Positions 1 to 55,484 of a stretch of 64,000 bases of DNA are shown here, one piece after another. The position numbers and the translations under genes are program-made. A model generated the notes under the pieces. It was not told the DNA's origin. It saw only the letters and a list, made by a program, of their open reading frames with translations, and made no database searches. Every line of letters begins with the position of its first letter. Position 1 is the first letter of the stretch. This DNA is from an uncultured Pseudomonadota bacterium (GTDB taxonomy: Bacteria; Pseudomonadota; Alphaproteobacteria; UBA9219), in the NCBI GenBank assembly GCA_903919315.1, contig CAIXHP010000014.1, positions 296-64,295 of the forward strand. The letters are read 5' to 3'.

Positions 1-1212
1 GGGTATCAGGCGCTGCGTGAAACCTCCACGGGTTCCAGCAACACAGCGGTCGGCTCTTTTGCGCTTCCTGTCAACACGAGTGGAACCGGCAACACGGCGG
101 TGGGACATAATGCTGGGGCTGTCCTGACGACCGGCAGTTCTAACACGGCGGTCGGAAGGTCGGCGCTCTGGTCCAACGTTACGGGCAACAGCAACACGGC
201 GTATGGATATTCGGCACTCTATTTTACAACGGGCCACACTAATACCGCGATTGGATCTGCTGCAGGACGGAGCATTGTGGCAGGTGGGGGCAATGTTGCC
301 ATCGGCTATTCCGCCCTTAATAATGCCACAAGCACAGCGTTTTCTGGCTCATACAATGTGGTGATCGGGACTTCGGTTGCCAGCACGACGCTGCCCACCG
401 GCAGCGGCTCCTGAAATATTCTGATCGGCACTAGCAGCGCGGTGGATACGCCTGCGGCGGGCACTAACGATTGGATGAACATCGGGAACACGATTTATGC
501 CGACATGGCGGGGATGCATGTGGGGATCGGGAGCGGGACGATCAATGCCGGCGCGGCGCTGGATTTGTCGTCGCAGACGAACTCGCTGCTGCTGCCCACG
601 GGGACGACCGGGCAGAGGCCGACGGCGACCAATGGGATGACGCGGTACAATTCGACCACCAATTTGCTTGAGTTTTATCAGAACGGCGCTTGGGTTAACT
701 ACACGACGGTGTCGGATGCTCGTTTGAAAACAGAGGTTCAGCCGGTGAAGGGCGCGCTGGCGATGGTGGACGAAATGAAGCCGGTTTACTTTAAATGGGA
801 TGCAAAGAATCCGCGCGCTGTCGGTCTGGGCGATGATCGCCGCCACGTCGGTTTCCTTGCGCAGGAATTGGAGACGGTGTTGCCGGAGGTCGTCAACACG
901 GGCGCGGATACCTATCGCAGCGTCGAATACGGCCAGATCGTCGCCGTGGCTGTGGGCGCGATCAAGGAGCTGAAGGCCGAGAACGACAACTTGCGGCAGC
1001 AGGTCGCGGCGTTGCAGGAGACGGCGGCGAAGGGGGCTTTGCGCCCCACGGAAGATTCAGCGGCACTGTCGATGCCTCAAACGGGCGGGGTCGTGCTGTG
1101 GGTCGCGGGGGGAGTCGGCGCGTTGCTGTTGTTCGGCATGGCGGGGCTTGGCACGGTTGTGCTGCGTCTGCGGCGCGATATGATGGCGATGAAGGACAAA
1201 CAGGCCGCCTAG
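1..1212 (+). pseudogene. 5'-partial fibre/adhesin-like repeat protein (YadA-head/Hep_Hag-like NTAxG repeats) with a C-terminal peptidase-S74 intramolecular chaperone domain and a hydrophobic tail. The frame is broken by one in-frame TGA at 412-414.
   Basis: Frame 1 is open from nt 1 (GYQALRETSTGSSNTAVGSFAL...). The repeat pattern continues straight across the stop (NVVIGTSVAS..GSGS*NILIGTSSAV). The stretch SDARLKTEV...HVGFLAQELETVLPEVV...IKELKAENDNLRQQ is typical of tail-fibre/endosialidase chaperone domains. A TM-like segment spans about 1081-1164. Confidence 0.6.
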
Positions 1213-3176: not shown

Positions 3177-4244
3177 TTACATGCCCCGTGCCGCCCGGCT
3201 TACGCTGGCGAGGGTGAAGAGGAGAAGGTTTCCGTTTTCCAGTCCGGCGAACAGGCAGTCGCCTGCGGCGTTCCAGACCAGACCGGTCACGGCGCAGCCT
3301 TGCGGTGCGAGGGGATATTGCAGCATGACTTCCATGCGTCCGTCAAGGGGGGCGAGGATGATCATGCCGTCGTCATAGCCCGCCGCTACCAGTTCGTCAC
3401 GCGGGTGCGGCGCGACGCGGGTGACGAGGTGGCCGTCGCTGCCGCCCAAGGTCATGGGCGCTTTGCCCCATGGCCCGCCGCCGAAGAAGGGCCAGCAGAT
3501 CACTTGTTCCGCGCCGCTGGTTGCCAGATATTTGCCGCGCGCGGTAAAGGCGAGGGAATGGATTTTGGCGGCGTAACCCTGCATCTGCATTTCCGCCATG
3601 TCGGACAGCCGCCAGCCGTGCAGCGCCGACTCCTGCATGCCGGTGACGACCATTTTGCCGTCGGGGCTCCACAGGACGGGCAGGTGCGAGCCTTTCCATT
3701 CCAGCCGTGACGGTGCGGAGTCCTTCGCGTTCATCCACCACAGGGACACGCCGTTGTAATGGCTGGCGGCCAGACGTTTGCCGTTGGGGCTGAAGGCGAG
3801 GCCGCCGATGCTGCTGGGGTGCGTCAGGGGCTGGCCGTGCGGTTGGCCTTCGGCGTTCAACACATGCGCCGTTTTGCCGATGCTGTAGGCGCGGAGGCCT
3901 TCGGGGGACGAGGCGACATGGTCGATCCATTGCTGTTTATGCTCGACGAGCAAGGTCGGCGCGTCGAGTTCGGGGTCGATGATAAAGGCTTTGCCATCGT
4001 CGCCGCCGGACAAAAAGGCGTGGTCGTCCGCGTCCGCTTGCAGCGACAGCGACACGCCGTCATGCAGCGGGAGCAGCTTGGGCGCGTCGGCTTCGTCGCT
4101 TGCGGGAAGGAGGCGCACCGAACCGTCGCCGAGCGTCGCCGCGATCCAGTTCCCGCGCCGGTTGCAGGCGATGGCGGTGACGGAAACGCGAAAATCCCAT
4201 TGGCGGGCGATGGCGGAGGCGGGGCGCATGCTTATGCCACGCAC
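3177..4244 (-). CDS. WD40/beta-propeller repeat protein
   Basis: Repeated GDGSVRLL / [12 protein letters not shown] / SPDGK...TG blocks typical of WD40-like propellers. An alternative start at 4229 would remove the overlap with the upstream gene. Confidence 0.72.
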
Positions 4245-5284
4245 GCCGCAAAGCCGTCGCGGAGGGCTTGCTCGTCCAGTTTGCGGCCGATGAAGACGAG
4301 GCGGCTTTGGCGTTTGGCGTCGGCGGGCCAGGGGGCGAGGTTGCTGCCGTCCATCATCATATGCACGCCTTGCAGCACAAAACGCTGGTCGCTGCCTTGC
4401 AGGTCGAGGATGCCTTTGTAGCGCAGCAAGTCGTTGCCCTTGGTGGCGCGGAGTTCGCCGATCCAGTCTTCGAATTTGGCGGGGTCGAGCGGTTTGTCGG
4501 CGCGGAGCGAGACGCTGGTTATGGTCGGATCGTGGCGTTCGTGTTTGGGTTCGTCATGATGGTGGTGGTGATGGCCGCATTGGCAGTGGCCGCCGCAGCC
4601 GTGGTTGTGATGATGTTCGTGTTCGTCTTCGTCTTCGTCGTGCAGAAACGTGGGCGTGTGCGCGAGGATGCGGTCGAGGTCGAAGCCGCCGAGGCCCAGA
4701 ATATGTTCCAACGGCGCGTTGCCGCGTTCGGCGCGGACGATGCGGGCAAAGCGGTTGATGGCGTGGATGTCGTTTTCCAGCTGCGCCAATTCCTCCGCGC
4801 TGACCAAATCGGTTTTGTTGAGGACGATGGTGTCGGCAAAGGCGATCTGTTCTTCGGCTTCGCGCGAGTCCCTGAGGCGCAGCGGCAGATGCTTGGCATC
4901 CACCACGGTGACAATGCTGTCCAGCTTGGCGCGGGCCGCGATGTCGGCATCGACGAAAAAGGTTTGCGCCACGGGGGCGGGGTCGGCGAGGCCGGTGGTT
5001 TCGATCAGAATGCCGTCAAATCCGGCGGCGCGTTTCAGCAAGCCCGCGATGACGCGGATCAAATCCCCGCGCACGGTGCAGCAGATGCAGCCGTTGTTCA
5101 TCTCAAAAATCTCTTCGTCGCTGCCGACCACCAACTGGTTGTCGATGCCGATTTCGCCGAACTCGTTGACGATCACGGCGTATTTCTTGCCGTGCGGTTC
5201 CGACAGAATGTGGTTGAGCAACGTGGTCTTGCCCGCGCCGAGATAGCCGGTGAGGACGGTGACGGGGATTTTGGCGTCGGTCAT
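4232..5284 (-). CDS. COG0523-family G3E GTPase (CobW/ZigA-like putative zinc metallochaperone) with a His-rich insert
   Basis: Walker [16 protein letters not shown], CxCC motif GCICCT, and the His-rich stretch [31 protein letters not shown]. Confidence 0.9.
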
Positions 5285-5403
5285 GGGGCTTTGCCATTCT
5301 GGGTTACGGGGTTGGGATGGCTATAACCTTCTTGCCGCAGCGTTTCAAGGCGTGTGCGGTGGGGCATTGAGGGTTTAGGTCTGATCCATCGATTCAAAAA
5401 ATG

Positions 5404-5500
5404 GGATGCCCGCCTTCGCGGGCATGACGGAATTTGTGTTTGAATTCAATCACTTGTCGTCATCCCCGCGAAGGCGGGGATCCCGTTCGGTTTCTTCTTT
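5404..5500. repeat. Family A modular hairpin repeat (two GC-hairpins plus conserved spacer)
   Basis: Contains ATGCCCGC-cttc-GCGGGCAT and ATCCCCGC-gaag-GCGGGGAT. It is the reverse-oriented near-copy of 37705-37814. Confidence 0.85.
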
Positions 5501-5618
5501 TATGACCGATTTCTGCGGCGCTGGTTCTTTCCTTCGCGGGAATGACATGGGCGGGAAAATTCGGTTCCTCAAGGGCGGGGCATACCCTAAGGTTCTCGCG
5601 CAGGGGGAGCGCATCGTT

Positions 5619-6194
5619 ATGTTGGATAAAGCGGACTATGGCTATTTGTCGATGGCGCTGGTTGCCGCCATAGCGGTGCCTTACTGGCGGTTGATGTTTT
5701 TGGGCAAGACGAAACCCCATGTTTTTTCGTGGATCATCTGGGGCTTGACCGAGGGCATCGGCGCGGCGGGGCGTTACGCCGAGGAAGCGGGGCCGGGCAT
5801 GTGGGGCGATGCTCTTGGCGCGGTTTTCTGCTTTTCCGTTGCCGTGTTGGGCATCTTTTGGGGCGAGAAGCGGATCACGCGGAGCGATGTTGTGTTTTTT
5901 GTGGGGGCCTTGGCGGCGATTCCCCTTTGGTATTTCACGGCGGATCCGTTGACGGCGATCATCCTCGTGGTGGGCATCGATGTGGTCGGGTATTATCCGA
6001 CGGCGCGGAAGTCCTTCCTTCGGCCGCAGGAGGAAGCGACGTATGCCTATGCTCTTTACATCGTTGTGGCTGGTTTAGCCTTGGCCGCCAGCGAGACCTA
6101 TTCTTTCGCGACGATGCTGGCACCGATCACGATGATTGTCGGCAATACCTTGCTGGTGGGTATGATCTGGTGGCGACGCGCCGTTACAAGATGA
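5619..6194 (+). CDS. hypothetical multi-pass membrane protein
   Basis: Hydrophobic segments run throughout. I moved the start to ATG 5619 (GGGGGAG upstream) because the longer ORF's N-terminus is encoded by the family A repeat. Confidence 0.55.
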
Positions 6195-48624: not shown

Positions 48625-50058
48625 TTACTGGTGTGCGCGTTTCTGAAGACGTTTAATGTCCCGCGCCTGCTCGTTCAGTTGCTCGCGCAACTTATCGTTC
48701 GCTGCTTTTAACTCGTTGACCGCCCCAATCAGTGGCCCTATGAACCCCATATAATCAACGCCTTTGTAGCCTTCTCCAATTCCATGAACCAACTCAGGAT
48801 AAACTTTTTCAACATCCTGCGCTATGACCCCCATTTTTTTCTCATTGTTCTGGTTCAAGGCAAAACTGACAGCATTGATCTTTGAGAGATCTTCCAACGG
48901 ATGTTCTATGGGTTTGATGTCATGCTTCAACCGAATGTCCGAAGGATCGTATATGAACGTCTCTGCCCACAAAATGTTGGCGTAGAGAAGCCCAGAAATG
49001 GTCTGGTTACCATTGACCTGTACTGCATAAGGGCAAGGGTCCGCGGGGACGTTTTTCTTGCACGGGATTACGGCTGGCGGATAGACAGGGCCATTGATGA
49101 CCACGGCCGAAGAAGCATCCGCAGGAACCATATTCATGACGAGCTGCTTCAACCCCATTATCGCTCCCGATGAGGAAGAACCACCAGATGCGTCCCCGAA
49201 TATCGTCCCCCCCTGCAGATTAAGCGGGCTCGCCTTCATGTTAAAGCTATGGGTGCCATCCATGTGGGTGTCAGCTTGCAGCGTGTTAAAGTTTGGTGTC
49301 GGCGGTGCTCCTACGTTTCCTGCTGTGATCAGACTGGTGTCCCGCGCCAGCCACGGATCGGCTGGGGTGGCACCTAGACCAACCACGGTGCGCGAAGCAA
49401 CCGCGCTAAAAACGGCGGTGGGAAAACCATACCCGCCGCTGAGCGCTGCAGCCGTAGGGCTCACGTTCCATGATCCGTAGGCACCGCAAGCTAAGCCCAA
49501 GCCACCGCAGACATCCACCGCGTAAACAAACCCGCCGTCCCCACCAATCATGCTGGCGATGCGTCCCCCCGACGAATCAGGAATCACGGTGGAGCCTGCC
49601 GCCGCCGAATTGGTGCGAATCATAAACGAGTAGTTTTGCTGTGGCATGGTACCGGCGGTCAGAATCTGTATTGCAAAAGGTTGTCCATAAGAATTGACAG
49701 TAGCCGATGTGAATCCCGGAGGAAGAAAGTCGCAGAATCCATGCGGGGCCGTACCCGCAGGCGGCAGTCCGGCGCATCCCGGACCGGTCGGCAAGGGGAG
49801 CGTATAATTGGCGCTGGGGCCGATGGTACCGCTGAGAAGGCCAACTCCCTCGCCGCTGGCCAAATACCCCCGCACCGCAGCGATCAGTTGCTTGTGTTGA
49901 TCCGCAGCGTTCTGATCGCGCAACTGGGTGTTGGCTCCGGCGATGAGTCGCCACAGTCCGGCGAACAACAGCGACGACACGGCCAAAACAATCGCCAACT
50001 CGACCAAGGTGAAACCACGGCCCGCGCGGCGGCGCATACCCAATTTCTGCAACATCAT
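48625..50058 (-). CDS. chimeric protein: type IV prepilin-type N-terminus, about 330-aa Gly-rich body, and C-terminal peptidase-S74 intramolecular chaperone domain
   Basis: GGGAGA SD. MRRRAGRG|FTLVELAIVLAVSSLLFAGLW has Gly-1, Phe+1 and Glu+5. The last 105 aa (SDIRLKHDIKPIEHPLEDL...MGVIAQDVEKVYPELV...VNELKAANDKLREQL) are paralogous to 712-1020. Confidence 0.75.
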   Translation of the reverse strand: MMLQKLGMRRRAGRGFTLVELAIVLAVSSLLFAGLWRLIAGANTQLRDQNAADQHKQLIAAVRGYLASGEGVGLLSGTIGPSANYTLPLPTGPGCAGLPPAGTAPHGFCDFLPPGFTSATVNSYGQPFAIQILTAGTMPQQNYSFMIRTNSAAAGSTVIPDSSGGRIASMIGGDGGFVYAVDVCGGLGLACGAYGSWNVSPTAAALSGGYGFPTAVFSAVASRTVVGLGATPADPWLARDTSLITAGNVGAPPTPNFNTLQADTHMDGTHSFNMKASPLNLQGGTIFGDASGGSSSSGAIMGLKQLVMNMVPADASSAVVINGPVYPPAVIPCKKNVPADPCPYAVQVNGNQTISGLLYANILWAETFIYDPSDIRLKHDIKPIEHPLEDLSKINAVSFALNQNNEKKMGVIAQDVEKVYPELVHGIGEGYKGVDYMGFIGPLIGAVNELKAANDKLREQLNEQARDIKRLQKRAHQ

Positions 50059-52364: not shown

Positions 52365-52943
52365 ATGGCGAATCCTCCGTTTTGCGACTCCGGCGCGGAT
52401 TGCTGCTGCCAAAAGCGCGAAGAGGACGCCACGCGCCGCGACTTCATCGTCTTGGCCGCCGAAGCCATGGCGGGCGTGGGCGCGGTCGGCGCGGCGTGGC
52501 CGCTCATCGATTCGATGAATCCCGCCGTCGCGACGGCAAAGGCTCTGGCGACCGAAGACATCGACCTCGCCGCCATCAAGGAAGGTCAGACACTCACCGT
52601 GATGTGGCAGGGCAAGCCCGTCTTCATCCGCCACCGCACCGCCGAAGAAATCGCGGCGGCCCGCGCCGTGCCGCTCGATCAACTCAAAGATCCGCAAAGC
52701 GACGAAGACCGCGTCGCCCAATCCGCCTTCGACGGCCACGCGCTGCCGCAATGGCTGGTGCTGATCGGCAAATGCACGCACCTCGGCTGCATCCCGCGCA
52801 GCCGCAAGGCCGAGGGCTGGCTCTGCTCGTGCCACGGCGCGCACTACGATACTTCAGGCCGCATCCGCCAAGGCCCCGCCCCCCGTAACCTCGAAATCCC
52901 TCCCTATCGGTTCACCGCCCTTACCAAGCTCAGGATCGGATAA
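52365..52943 (+). CDS. petA: ubiquinol-cytochrome c reductase Rieske iron-sulfur subunit
   Basis: TRRDF twin-arginine-like leader, 2Fe-2S boxes CTHLGC and CSCHGAHYD, and GPAPRNLEIPPY. Confidence 0.9.
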   Translation: MANPPFCDSGADCCCQKREEDATRRDFIVLAAEAMAGVGAVGAAWPLIDSMNPAVATAKALATEDIDLAAIKEGQTLTVMWQGKPVFIRHRTAEEIAAARAVPLDQLKDPQSDEDRVAQSAFDGHALPQWLVLIGKCTHLGCIPRSRKAEGWLCSCHGAHYDTSGRIRQGPAPRNLEIPPYRFTALTKLRIG

Positions 52944-54200
52944 ATGCCCGCCGCCCCGCGCGTTCCCTTCAAGAATCCGGTCGTCGAATGGGTTGACGTG
53001 AGGTTGCCGCTGTTCAGTCTGTGGCGCGATCGCTATGCGATGATGCCGGTGCCGCGCAATCTCAACGGGTGGTGGGTGTCCGGCGCTCTGGCGTTGTTCA
53101 CGCTCGCGGTGATGATCGTCAGCGGCGTTTTTCTGGCAATGCACTACACGCCGACGACCGCGCAAGCCTTCGCCTCGGTCGAGCGCACCATGCGCGAAGT
53201 CAATTGGGGTTGGCTGCTCCGCGCGGTTCATATGAACGGCGCGTCGCTGTTTTTCGCCATCGTCTATGCGCACATTCTCCGCAGCGTCTATTACGGCTCA
53301 TACAAGCGCCCGCGTGAATTGCTGTGGCTGCTGGGTGTCGTGCTGTTCCTGCTGATGATGGCGACGGCCTTCATGGGCAGCGTGTTGCCGTGGAGCCAGA
53401 CAGGCTATTGGAGCGCCACCGTCGTCGCCAACCTGTTCAGGGCCATCCCGTTCGTTGGCGAGCCGCTCGTGACATGGCTGATCGGCGGCCCGGAGGTGGG
53501 CGAGGCGACGCTGCGCCGTTTCTTCGCGCTCCATTACCTGCTGCCGTTCGCGATGATCGGTGTGGCGTTTTTGCATGTCGCGGCCCAACACGTCGCGGGC
53601 GCGAACAATCCGCTGGGCATCGACCCCAAAAGCCCGCAGGACACCGTGCCGTTTCATCCCCGTTATACGAGCCGCGACCTGTTCGGGCTGGCCGTGTTCG
53701 TCTTGGTCTTTGCCGCCATCGTGTTCTTTGCGCCCGCCGCCTTTGTCGCGCCCGCCAGCGACATCCCCGCCGACCCGATGACCACGCCGGACGTCATCGT
53801 GCCCGCGTGGTATTTCCTGCCCTTTTTCGCCATGTTGCGCTCTGTCGGCGATCTGGTCGTGCCCTTTACCGCCATCGTGCTGATCCCCGCCCAGCTGGGC
53901 GGCGTGCTGGCGCTGTTCGGCGCGTTGCTGACGTTGCTGCTGCTGCCGTGGCTGGATCGTTCGCCCGTGCGCTCGGCGGTGTTTCGCCCCCTTTACAAAA
54001 AGCTGTTCTGGTTGCTGGTGCTGGACCTCGCGCTGCTGGGCTATGTCGGCGCGCAAGAGCCGGAGGGGCTGTGCCGCCTGCTCGGCCGACTGGCGACCGC
54101 CTATTACTTCCTCCATTTCCTGATCTTTCTCCCCCTGTTGCCCCGCATCGAAAAACCCCAGCCTTTGCCGAGCAGCATCGCGGAGGCGGTGAGGGAATGA
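52944..54200 (+). CDS. petB: cytochrome b (divergent: PAWY instead of PEWY)
   Basis: WLLRAVHMNGASLFFAIVYAHILRSVYYGSY, RFFALHYLLPF...FLHV, and His at ORF positions 96/110/197/211. IVPAWYFLPFFAMLR. Confidence 0.92.
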   Translation: MPAAPRVPFKNPVVEWVDVRLPLFSLWRDRYAMMPVPRNLNGWWVSGALALFTLAVMIVSGVFLAMHYTPTTAQAFASVERTMREVNWGWLLRAVHMNGASLFFAIVYAHILRSVYYGSYKRPRELLWLLGVVLFLLMMATAFMGSVLPWSQTGYWSATVVANLFRAIPFVGEPLVTWLIGGPEVGEATLRRFFALHYLLPFAMIGVAFLHVAAQHVAGANNPLGIDPKSPQDTVPFHPRYTSRDLFGLAVFVLVFAAIVFFAPAAFVAPASDIPADPMTTPDVIVPAWYFLPFFAMLRSVGDLVVPFTAIVLIPAQLGGVLALFGALLTLLLLPWLDRSPVRSAVFRPLYKKLFWLLVLDLALLGYVGAQEPEGLCRLLGRLATAYYFLHFLIFLPLLPRIEKPQPLPSSIAEAVRE

Positions 54201-54448
54201 AACGCACCGCCGCCCTGCTATTGCTCGCCCTCGCGCTAGCGCCCATCCCCGCCGGAGCCAGTGCGCCAAGCCCCACAACTGCCGTCCACGAAGCCGAAGC
54301 GGCGCAAGCCCCGCTGTCTCTCCTCTGGGATGCCGAACCACTACAGGCGACGCGTTTGCGCACCGGCGCGGGCGTTCTGGCCTTCCTCGCCGTCTTTGCC
54401 GTCCTCCTGTACATCCTGCAACGTCGCGCATGGGCGAAACGGTCTTAA
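54197..54448 (+). CDS. 83-aa 'headless' cytochrome c1 remnant (signal peptide plus c1-type C-terminal anchor, no CxxCH)
   Basis: ATGA overlap with the petB stop. MKRTAALLLLALALAPIPAGASA..., then WDAEPLQATRLRTGAGVLAFLAVFAVLLYILQRRAW resembles the conserved C-terminal W-x-AEP...R..G-TM end of c1. Confidence 0.6.
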   Translation: MKRTAALLLLALALAPIPAGASAPSPTTAVHEAEAAQAPLSLLWDAEPLQATRLRTGAGVLAFLAVFAVLLYILQRRAWAKRS

Positions 54449-54518: not shown

Positions 54519-54594
<76 letters not shown>

Positions 54595-54689: not shown

Positions 54690-55484
54690 ATGTTAACTTT
54701 AGTTGATTTACATAGCGCTCTCGTTGTCGCGCCCATTTCGATGGCCAAGATTGACGGTATGCAGTCGGCGCGGGAAACCATGCGGATCTTCACAGACCTG
54801 CTGCTTCCCCGCGCCCCGGAAGACGAAGCCAGCACGGATGTCGTCGCCGTCACGACCGAGGGGCTTTATATGTGCAACGCAGGCGAGTCGGCTCATGCGT
54901 TGCGTGAACGACTTTGGAAAATGGGCGACTGTTTTCGTCGGCAGTTTCACAATGAGCTTGCTCAAGCGCACAAGAAGGATCCCCGCATCATCCCTCAGGC
55001 CTATGAAATCGAGACTTTCGATGCCTTGCGCGCGCGAGCCTCGGGAGATTTTCGTCAACTCTTTGGCCTGCTGAAAGGCGAGGTGACAACCAATCCGCGC
55101 TACCGGGAAAAAATCAGCGCCGACCTCGACCGCCTGAACCAGCCGATGACCGAGGACAAAACCGCCTTTCTCAATGAAGAGTTTGTCTGGGGTTGGCTGG
55201 TCTACAAAGGCCGCCTGCGCTTGCGCGAAAACGGCGCGCTGCGCAGACACAGAGAGGGGCAAACCATCGTGTGCTATCCGGGCGACCTGATGGCTTCGCA
55301 AATCGAAGCCTACCGCCTGCTGACCCACGCCACGGGCGCTCTGCCGATGGGGCGCAGCCTCTACGTCAACACCGTTCGTCACCAAGACGAAGATGTCGCG
55401 GCGACCGTCGCGGGGCTGGAGAGGCGAGAACCTCTTGGGAAGAAAATCCCACGCGTCAAACTATCGGCCTTTGCGCCGACGTAG
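54690..55484 (+). CDS. hypothetical protein (264 aa)
   Basis: Long ORF with no recognisable motif and a weak SD. Start uncertain (54690 or 54741). Confidence 0.42.
   Translation: MLTLVDLHSALVVAPISMAKIDGMQSARETMRIFTDLLLPRAPEDEASTDVVAVTTEGLYMCNAGESAHALRERLWKMGDCFRRQFHNELAQAHKKDPRIIPQAYEIETFDALRARASGDFRQLFGLLKGEVTTNPRYREKISADLDRLNQPMTEDKTAFLNEEFVWGWLVYKGRLRLRENGALRRHREGQTIVCYPGDLMASQIEAYRLLTHATGALPMGRSLYVNTVRHQDEDVAATVAGLERREPLGKKIPRVKLSAFAPT

Follow-up and report, generated by a model that had tools for sequence, protein, structure and literature searches.

The contig CAIXHP010000014.1 (assembly GCA_903919315.1) is derived from a metagenome and belongs to an uncultured freshwater alphaproteobacterium (UBA9219), the source habitat of which, judging from the naming of the metagenome-assembled genome, is probably oxygen-stratified lakes. 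In the 64-kb stretch of this contig that we analysed (hereafter the window), three open reading frames (ORFs) lie tightly packed on the forward strand (+) between positions 52365 and 54448 and form a coupled operon; the coordinates given below for the operon and the adjoining tRNA gene all refer to this strand. The first gene, petA (52365-52943), encodes a Rieske iron-sulfur subunit of 192 amino acids (aa), and the second, petB (52944-54200), whose start codon begins at the first base past the petA stop, encodes a full-length cytochrome b of 418 aa. The third, here called petC' (54197-54448), overlaps the end of petB by an ATGA (54197-54200), is preceded immediately upstream by a strong Shine-Dalgarno signal (GGAGG and GAGGGA), and encodes an 83-aa remnant of cytochrome c1 that has lost its haem domain. 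Its stop codon is separated by 70 nucleotides from a tRNA-Lys(CTT) gene (54519-54594). An earlier note on this DNA had described the ATGA coupling, the 83-aa product devoid of CxxCH and the nearby tRNA, together with the presence of both 2Fe-2S boxes in PetA and of the four haem-ligand histidines in PetB; on re-reading the sequence, we found these features and every other motif and coordinate quoted there to be present. The operon is a genuine natural variant of the bc1 operon of Alphaproteobacteria, and the only one of its kind so far.

The Rieske subunit scores 203.9 bits against the TIGR01416 model (Rieske_proteo; cut-off 97.4), also matches the Pfam models UCR_Fe-S_N (PF10399, the domain of the twin-arginine translocation (TAT) signal) and Rieske, and aligns with bc1 Rieske chains of the PDB at E = 6e-48. 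The b6f models stay far below their own cut-offs, and the best matches are alphaproteobacterial bc1 subunits. The protein carries a twin-arginine signal (T-RRDF), upstream of which we observed an N-terminal extension of about 20 residues containing four Cys (CDSGADCCC; 52365-52430), without counterpart in the aligned Rhodobacter Rieske protein. Box I (CTHLGC, 52773-52790), with its Cys and His cluster ligands, is unchanged. When compared with 74 relatives, PetA departs from the at least 95% consensus at only two of 38 columns, P155S and S159A, both of them in box II (52824-52841). This box keeps its ligands and reads CSCHGA, followed by HY, instead of CPCHGS, a divergence that had been noticed from the sequence and that the alignment confirms, the last position being Ser in 74/74 relatives and the Pro being present in 72/74. 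The Ser replaced by Ala is the one that tunes the cluster: the A-Y Rieske signature is classed as 'Mid-', with about 200 mV, and the S-Y signature corresponds to more than 260 mV (PMC4122944). After CxCH, the window protein has A-Y in place of the high-potential S-Y.

PetB is unsplit and matches the Pfam families Cytochrome_B (3e-65) and Cytochrom_B_C (3e-35), as well as the solved Rhodobacter and Paracoccus cytochrome b chains of the PDB (E = 3e-122). The haem ligands His96, His110, His197, and His211, located in invariant columns, are all kept. The protein nevertheless differs at 22 of the 157 columns that are invariant in 27 relatives, whereas each of these relatives differs at 0-3. About half of these private changes are concentrated in two segments of the quinol-oxidation (Qo) site, namely the cd helix (53379-53441) and the ef loop (53757-53828). 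The cd helix carries Y146S, G151S, M153T, S154G, I161V, T162A, and S166R in invariant columns and G157S in a column conserved in at least 90% of the sequences, with PWSQTGYW (53388-53411) in place of PWGQMSFW; the ef loop carries N272S, N277D, E288A, and Y295F, the third of which converts PEWY into PAWY (53802-53813). Both motifs had been listed by the earlier note as altered at normally invariant positions, and rightly so, as the columns of G151, M153, S154, and E288 are invariant in the 27 relatives, and likewise those of Y146 and Y295. Further changes (E30R, F40L, Y42G, F46S, Y240R, and K244R) affect the N-terminal and helix-E regions, which we take to lie near the quinone-reduction (Qi) site, where His216 and Asp245 are kept. 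Conservative exchanges (I to V, K to R, Y to F, D to E, and M to L) are frequent among the private changes. By alignment with the PDB chains, Y146 and Y295 are equivalent to Y147 and Y302 of Rhodobacter. The window cytochrome b has neither the PEWY motif nor the Tyr147/Tyr302 pair (Rhodobacter numbering) of bc1 complexes. In Rhodobacter, replacing Y147, which is described as conserved in all bc1 complexes, by Ser affects activity dramatically, and mutation of Y302 slows the enzyme 3-50-fold (PMC7908018).

The 83-aa product of petC' scores 26.1 bits against the Pfam model Cytochrom_C1 (PF02167), above the gathering cut-off of 22.8, with a match limited to model positions 178-218 of 219; positions 1-177 are absent. 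With phmmer, it hits the C-terminal ends of bacterial c1 chains of known structure (E about 2e-4), and tblastn with the c1 of relatives as query finds it at E = 2e-8. Alignment with the nearest full-length c1 proteins (257-279 aa) supports the similarity proposed in the earlier note, which had read this ORF as a signal peptide, a linker, and the C-terminal W-x-AEP...R..G segment of c1 with its transmembrane anchor: the protein joins a signal peptide, through a short linker, to the ~57 C-terminal residues of c1. The predicted Sec-type signal peptide (aa 1-21, 54197-54259), read from the sequence as MKR, a hydrophobic core, and AGA ahead of the putative cleavage point, can be aligned with its counterparts in full-length c1. 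The stretch that runs from T27 to the C-terminus needs no gap to align with the c1 of the closest relative (the sister, see below). This part comprises what is left of the final helix of the c1 head (aa 27-41, TTAVHEAEAAQAPLS; 54275-54319), with the same spacing to WxAEP as in the sister c1, followed by the juxtamembrane segment LLWDAEP..R..TG, the transmembrane anchor (about aa 57-74), and a basic tail (54320-54445). The haem-binding fold that should precede it is deleted, leaving an alignment gap of about 170-195 residues, depending on the c1 compared; the product contains neither CxxCH nor any Cys or His motif, and the Met-ligand region is gone.

The two retained c1 segments differ in their conservation. 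In comparison with 83 full-length c1 sequences, the anchor (L42 onward) has kept all eight of the residues that are at least 90% conserved (L, W, E, P, R, G, F, and W), whereas upstream of it, in the last head helix and the YxDG turn, the five conserved positions are all changed or deleted. Likewise, 19 of the 42 anchor residues are identical in the sister c1, against 4/15 in the drifted head-helix remnant (dN, the nonsynonymous divergence, being 0.57 and 0.92, respectively). That the head stub drifted while the adjoining anchor did not suggests that, after the deletion, selection continued to act on the anchor, the only known role of which is within the complex.

Since the sequence comes from a metagenome and spurious ORFs are plentiful in high-GC DNA, we considered the possibility of an assembly or binning artefact, or of a chance ORF, with the 83-aa frame then corresponding to no genuine gene product. 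The earlier note had also entertained a loss of the haem domain during assembly. This is refuted by the occurrence of the 83-aa gene, behind a gene for an identical cytochrome b, in no fewer than six independent assemblies (GCA_903945155.1, ERZ1426519, ERZ1426810, ERZ18637247, ERZ27313254, and, in Logan, SRR8496330). Four of these loci have DNA on file, and all match the window: three are 100% identical over 2.9-4.4 kb and one shows a single mismatch in 9.3 kb. MEGAHIT, Logan, and further assemblies, built from different samples, share the deletion junction, and in the population sampled the deletion is fixed. The Pfam score of petC' above the gathering threshold, its ungapped alignment with the sister c1, and the strong Shine-Dalgarno signal and ATGA coupling ahead of it also speak against an artefact, to which we attach a negligible probability.

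The closest relative of the window cytochrome b (P0002, used here as the sister) is 65% identical and is encoded at two loci from independent assemblies (L006 and L007); in the protein database, JGI data included, there is no cytochrome b between 65% and 100% identity to that of the window. At the sister locus, petB is followed by a full 257-aa c1 gene with CxxCH and then by tRNA-Lys(CTT), which serves as a synteny marker, and the spacer preceding the tRNA can be aligned with that of the window. The shared petB-petC-tRNA-Lys synteny and the alignable spacer imply that the window operon is a derived ortholog and not an ancient paralogue, such that the paralogous module suggested by the earlier note finds, as worded, no support. 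These comparisons show that we are dealing with the orthologous petABC (cytochrome bc1) operon of an alphaproteobacterium. The most parsimonious history is that about 174 codons were deleted in frame, which removed the whole c1 haem head, including CxxCH and the Met-ligand region.

A comparison with orthologous loci in relatives, which the earlier note had recommended, was extended to 80 loci from alphaproteobacterial genomes, of which 79 were informative. Like the sister, all 79 carry a c1 that spans the haem domain through to the anchor; it is encoded by a gene of its own (249-313 aa) or, at seven loci, fused to cytochrome b. A word-indexed search with the 83-aa protein, aimed at other headless c1 proteins, gave no match. 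HMMER, run exhaustively against 1.84 billion cluster representatives, returned four hits, none of them with the combination of signal peptide and anchor: a low-complexity protein of 1631 aa, a full-length c1, and two C-terminal c1 fragments without signal peptide (P0123 and P0124).

Several peculiarities of these relatives and loci deserve mention in their own right. The two fragments P0123 (126 aa) and P0124 (154 aa) are metagenomic proteins that combine a non-c1 N-terminus with the c1 C-terminal region, lack CxxCH, and may be truncated or chimeric. One cytochrome b relative (P0003, 505 aa) shows duplicated N-terminal domain hits. In the sister group, locus L093 has an SBP_bac_3 solute-binding-protein gene between petA and petB (L093 1-1436), an unusual interruption of a pet operon. 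The contigs of L006 and L007 begin just upstream of petB, and only the end of this same solute-binding-protein gene is visible (L006 1-231); the upstream ORF of L006 was considered as a Rieske fragment and rejected, being the end of that gene. The glmM, ftsH, and FYDLN synteny of the window was looked for across 85 loci and was shared only by L076, with glmM downstream; this locus, on a 1.46-Mb chromosome, carries a cytochrome b-c1 fusion with glmM directly after it on the opposite strand. Finally, L088 (about 5179-6030) contains what appears to be a cytochrome b-c1 fusion broken by a frameshift, with a 158-aa extension bearing CxxCH followed by a 142-aa ORF with WxxEP.

The haem head missing from the operon might have been relocated. 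According to this possibility, c1 would be split, its haem domain being encoded elsewhere in the genome as a soluble or self-anchored protein that docks on the WxAEP stub to reconstitute a normal bc1 complex in two pieces. The retention of the juxtamembrane docking segment and of the signal peptide is in line with such an arrangement, and Rieske/cytochrome b complexes whose c-type subunit is encoded off-operon do exist (PMC10172866). However, a tblastn search for a c1 haem domain in the window found only the known C-terminal match (a weak match at E = 0.31 within the ORF at 54690-55484 was judged to be due to chance), and C..CH does not occur in any open frame of at least 50 aa in the six frames of the window. 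No c1 haem-domain family is on record among the called genes in the parts of the ~76-kb contig outside the window. A split c1 would, moreover, leave unexplained the changes of the Qo catalytic residues and of the Rieske tuning Ser, and the head-helix remnant, which would adjoin the relocated head, has drifted. We consider this explanation very improbable.

The divergence of the operon is also visible in its rates of evolution. In Tajima relative-rate tests of cytochrome b with P0002 as sister, 65-97 replacements were unique to the window and 14-25 to the sister, with p <= 4e-6 for every outgroup; the window branch is 4-5 times faster than that of the sister. The Rieske protein is about 2.5 times faster (25 vs 10 replacements, p about 0.01). 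A long branch of the whole lineage, which might have caused the divergence of cytochrome b, was rejected using GroEL from the same contig as a control: only 1/294 of its invariant columns is changed, its best relatives are 92-95% identical, and its mean identity to the comparison set exceeds the set's own average. Since GroEL is not accelerated, the lineage is not generally fast-evolving and the acceleration is gene-specific. Among the closest GroEL relatives, the contig of P0129 is not syntenic with the window and is too short to reach petABC.

The dN/dS analysis advocated by the earlier note was run on petB by the NG86 and LWL85 methods and gave, between the window and the sister, a dN of 0.27, a synonymous divergence (dS) of 1.3-1.45, which is near saturation, and a ratio (omega) of about 0.2. 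If dS is split evenly between the two branches, omega would be, roughly and by our own estimate, ~0.3 on the window branch and ~0.07 on the sister branch. The ORFs of petA, petB, and petC' are all intact, with no stop or frameshift in 2.1 kb. In a simulation in which the ~70 excess replacements of petB were neutral, the probability of encountering no stop was 0.025-0.14, a figure that concerns petB only and does not count indels.

These data bear directly on the idea, already raised in the earlier note, that the complex is decaying. The operon would then be a relic in an early stage of decay: the bc1 complex would no longer be needed (for example, because of anaerobic life or the presence of a quinol oxidase), the deletion of the c1 head would have killed it, and petA, petB, and the remnant would be drifting under relaxed or absent selection without having acquired a stop or frameshift yet. 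Once-invariant sites have clearly come under weaker constraint: the alteration of 22/157 such sites in cytochrome b, against 0-3 in relatives, and the acceleration of the cytochrome b branch are what such a process would produce; the trait is found in one lineage among the 1.84 billion cluster representatives and the 79 surveyed loci, and an escape from stop codons is possible (3-14%). By contrast, omega, both overall and as estimated for the window branch, is well below 1, and the three genes have remained open despite the excess replacements in petB. In addition, the Rieske protein is nearly unchanged at conserved columns (2/38), all haem and cluster ligands are kept, many of the private cytochrome b changes are conservative, and the conserved anchor next to a drifted head-helix remnant implies selection on the anchor after the deletion. 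Decay is a serious rival, supported by the replaced Qo residues and the acceleration and opposed by the intact ORFs and the low omega, but on the whole we judge it possible and somewhat unlikely.

We favour instead, as an evenly poised proposition, that selection on the complex has changed but that its assembly continues, c1 being no more than a structural anchor in it. This retains one part of the second reading of the earlier note, namely an anchor kept as a structural subunit of a complex that uses a different acceptor, which is favoured by the conservation of the anchor, the intact ORFs, and omega below 1; its paralogous origin is the part that does not stand. The three genes would be kept by selection and their products, cytochrome b, the Rieske protein, and the c1 anchor, would still form a complex, in which the canonical route from quinol through the iron-sulfur cluster and haem c1 to a soluble cytochrome c could not operate. 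The mature anchor peptide of 62 residues would be a purely structural subunit, occupying the position of the c1 helix against cytochrome b and the Rieske helix. In Rhodobacter, cytochrome b joins c1 in a stable core subcomplex and is unstable in its absence, which would explain why the c1 helix was kept. The most likely working mode would be that of a c1-less Rieske/cytochrome b quinol oxidoreductase, whose exposed Rieske cluster of lowered potential may be re-oxidised by a carrier encoded elsewhere, as with cytochrome c-556 in green sulfur bacteria, and whose quinone sites may have adapted to another quinol or reaction regime. In its full form, this proposal would have a Rieske/cytochrome b complex descend directly from an alphaproteobacterial bc1 and remain functional after discarding haem c1, with a 62-residue c1-derived peptide retained only as a structural transmembrane subunit, electrons passed directly from the Rieske cluster of lowered potential to a non-c1 acceptor, and a Qo site rebuilt without the PEWY Glu, Tyr147, and Tyr302. 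In that form it is more tentative, and we would put its chances somewhat below even.

Several observations weigh against a working complex. The one route by which electrons are known to leave a bc1-type complex has been lost, and the catalytic Qo residues have been swapped for ones that cripple model enzymes; by the standard mechanism, a Qo site with changes of the Y147S and Y302 types should be poor. Neither an alternative acceptor nor any respiratory domain was found among the ORFs and called genes screened in the window and the rest of the ~76-kb contig, the screened genes being housekeeping ones or having unassigned domains (for example, hslUV, rph, groESL, pheST, gatB, tilS, ftsH, glmM, and rpoN). 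The stop-codon test is only moderately strong (p = 0.03-0.14), a 4-5-fold acceleration at formerly invariant sites can also be the product of relaxed selection, and the contrast between anchor and head is based on only 13 columns. Lastly, the trait occurs in just one species-level lineage, nearly all assemblies of which are identical.

The window operon shares with the proteobacterial and mitochondrial bc1 complexes (petABC = fbcFBC; structures 1ZRT of R. capsulatus and 2QJP of R. sphaeroides) the gene order, a TIGR01416-type Rieske protein with a TAT signal, two cluster-binding boxes (CxH...CxxH), and the disulfide Cys residues, an unsplit eight-helix cytochrome b with four His ligands for haems bL and bH, and a homologous c1 C-terminal segment with its anchor. 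It differs from them in having no haem c1 domain, with its CxxCH and Met sixth ligand, in reading PAWY instead of PEWY, in the replacement of the equivalents of Tyr147 and Tyr302, in the remodelled cd helix, and in the A-Y instead of S-Y Rieske signature. PEWY is the alphaproteobacterial Qo motif, and PAWY is the natural one in Leptospirillum ferrooxidans and Desulfosporosinus acidiphilus (PMC4122944); these are acidophiles from other phyla, and their cytochrome b clades mostly have a fused cytochrome c domain. The fbcH-type cytochrome b-c1 fusions (for example, in Bradyrhizobium) are another alphaproteobacterial rearrangement of petB and petC, but one that keeps the full haem domain that is deleted here.

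A possible functional parallel is provided by green sulfur bacteria, where the operon of the Rieske/cytochrome b complex lacks a c1 gene and the acceptor is the product of a distant gene (PMC10172866). The petCB genes of Chlorobaculum tepidum, together with its cytochrome c-556, resemble the window operon in forming a Rieske/cytochrome b module with no haem-c subunit in the operon. In C. tepidum the acceptor is a separately encoded c-type cytochrome (PMC10172866), and the Rieske centre is of low potential (PMC4122944); no acceptor was found in the window. This system nonetheless belongs to another lineage, has a b6f-type Rieske protein, keeps PEWY, and has no c1-derived anchor peptide; the window proteins, for their part, have neither the b6f-like Rieske nor the position in the Chlorobi/Acidobacteria cytochrome b clade that characterize the Chlorobi type.

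Some further features of the window are also worth noting. Directly downstream of the tRNA-Lys gene, a 264-aa ORF (54690-55484 (+)) has no Pfam, NCBIfam, or tblastn relatives in the fetched loci, and unrelated sequence is found at its position in the sister locus; it could be a small insertion at the tRNA. It was called as 247 or 264 aa in different assemblies, and L001 differs by one single-nucleotide polymorphism within the 9.3-kb overlap. A 477-aa ORF (48625-50058 (-)) displays an unusual combination of an N-terminal prepilin-type methylation motif and a Peptidase_S74 domain, the latter being the intramolecular chaperone of endosialidase and tail-spike proteins. Peptidase_S74, together with a PTL_trimer hit, also occurs in a 256-aa ORF (442-1212 (+)), which on the contig follows a gene for a 1538-aa protein (L092 1-4617). 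A WD40 beta-propeller gene overlaps the adjoining gene for a CobW-family GTPase (3177-4244 (-) and 4232-5284 (-)).

Cytochrome bc1 (complex III) is among the most conserved energy-converting enzymes, and the mitochondrial enzyme derives from Alphaproteobacteria. If the complex encoded in the window works, it would show that the c1 transmembrane helix serves the structure independently of any redox function, that a bc1-derived Rieske cluster can use another acceptor, and that quinol oxidation is possible without the Glu and Tyr proton-relay residues, whose role is debated; the operon would then amount to a natural experiment on what complex III can do without. If it is decaying, it would offer a cleanly dated snapshot of the order in which such a complex is dismantled, starting with the c1 head, followed by the Qo site, with the cofactor ligands and membrane helices last. 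Either way, it provides a concrete anchor-only construct that is testable in Rhodobacter.

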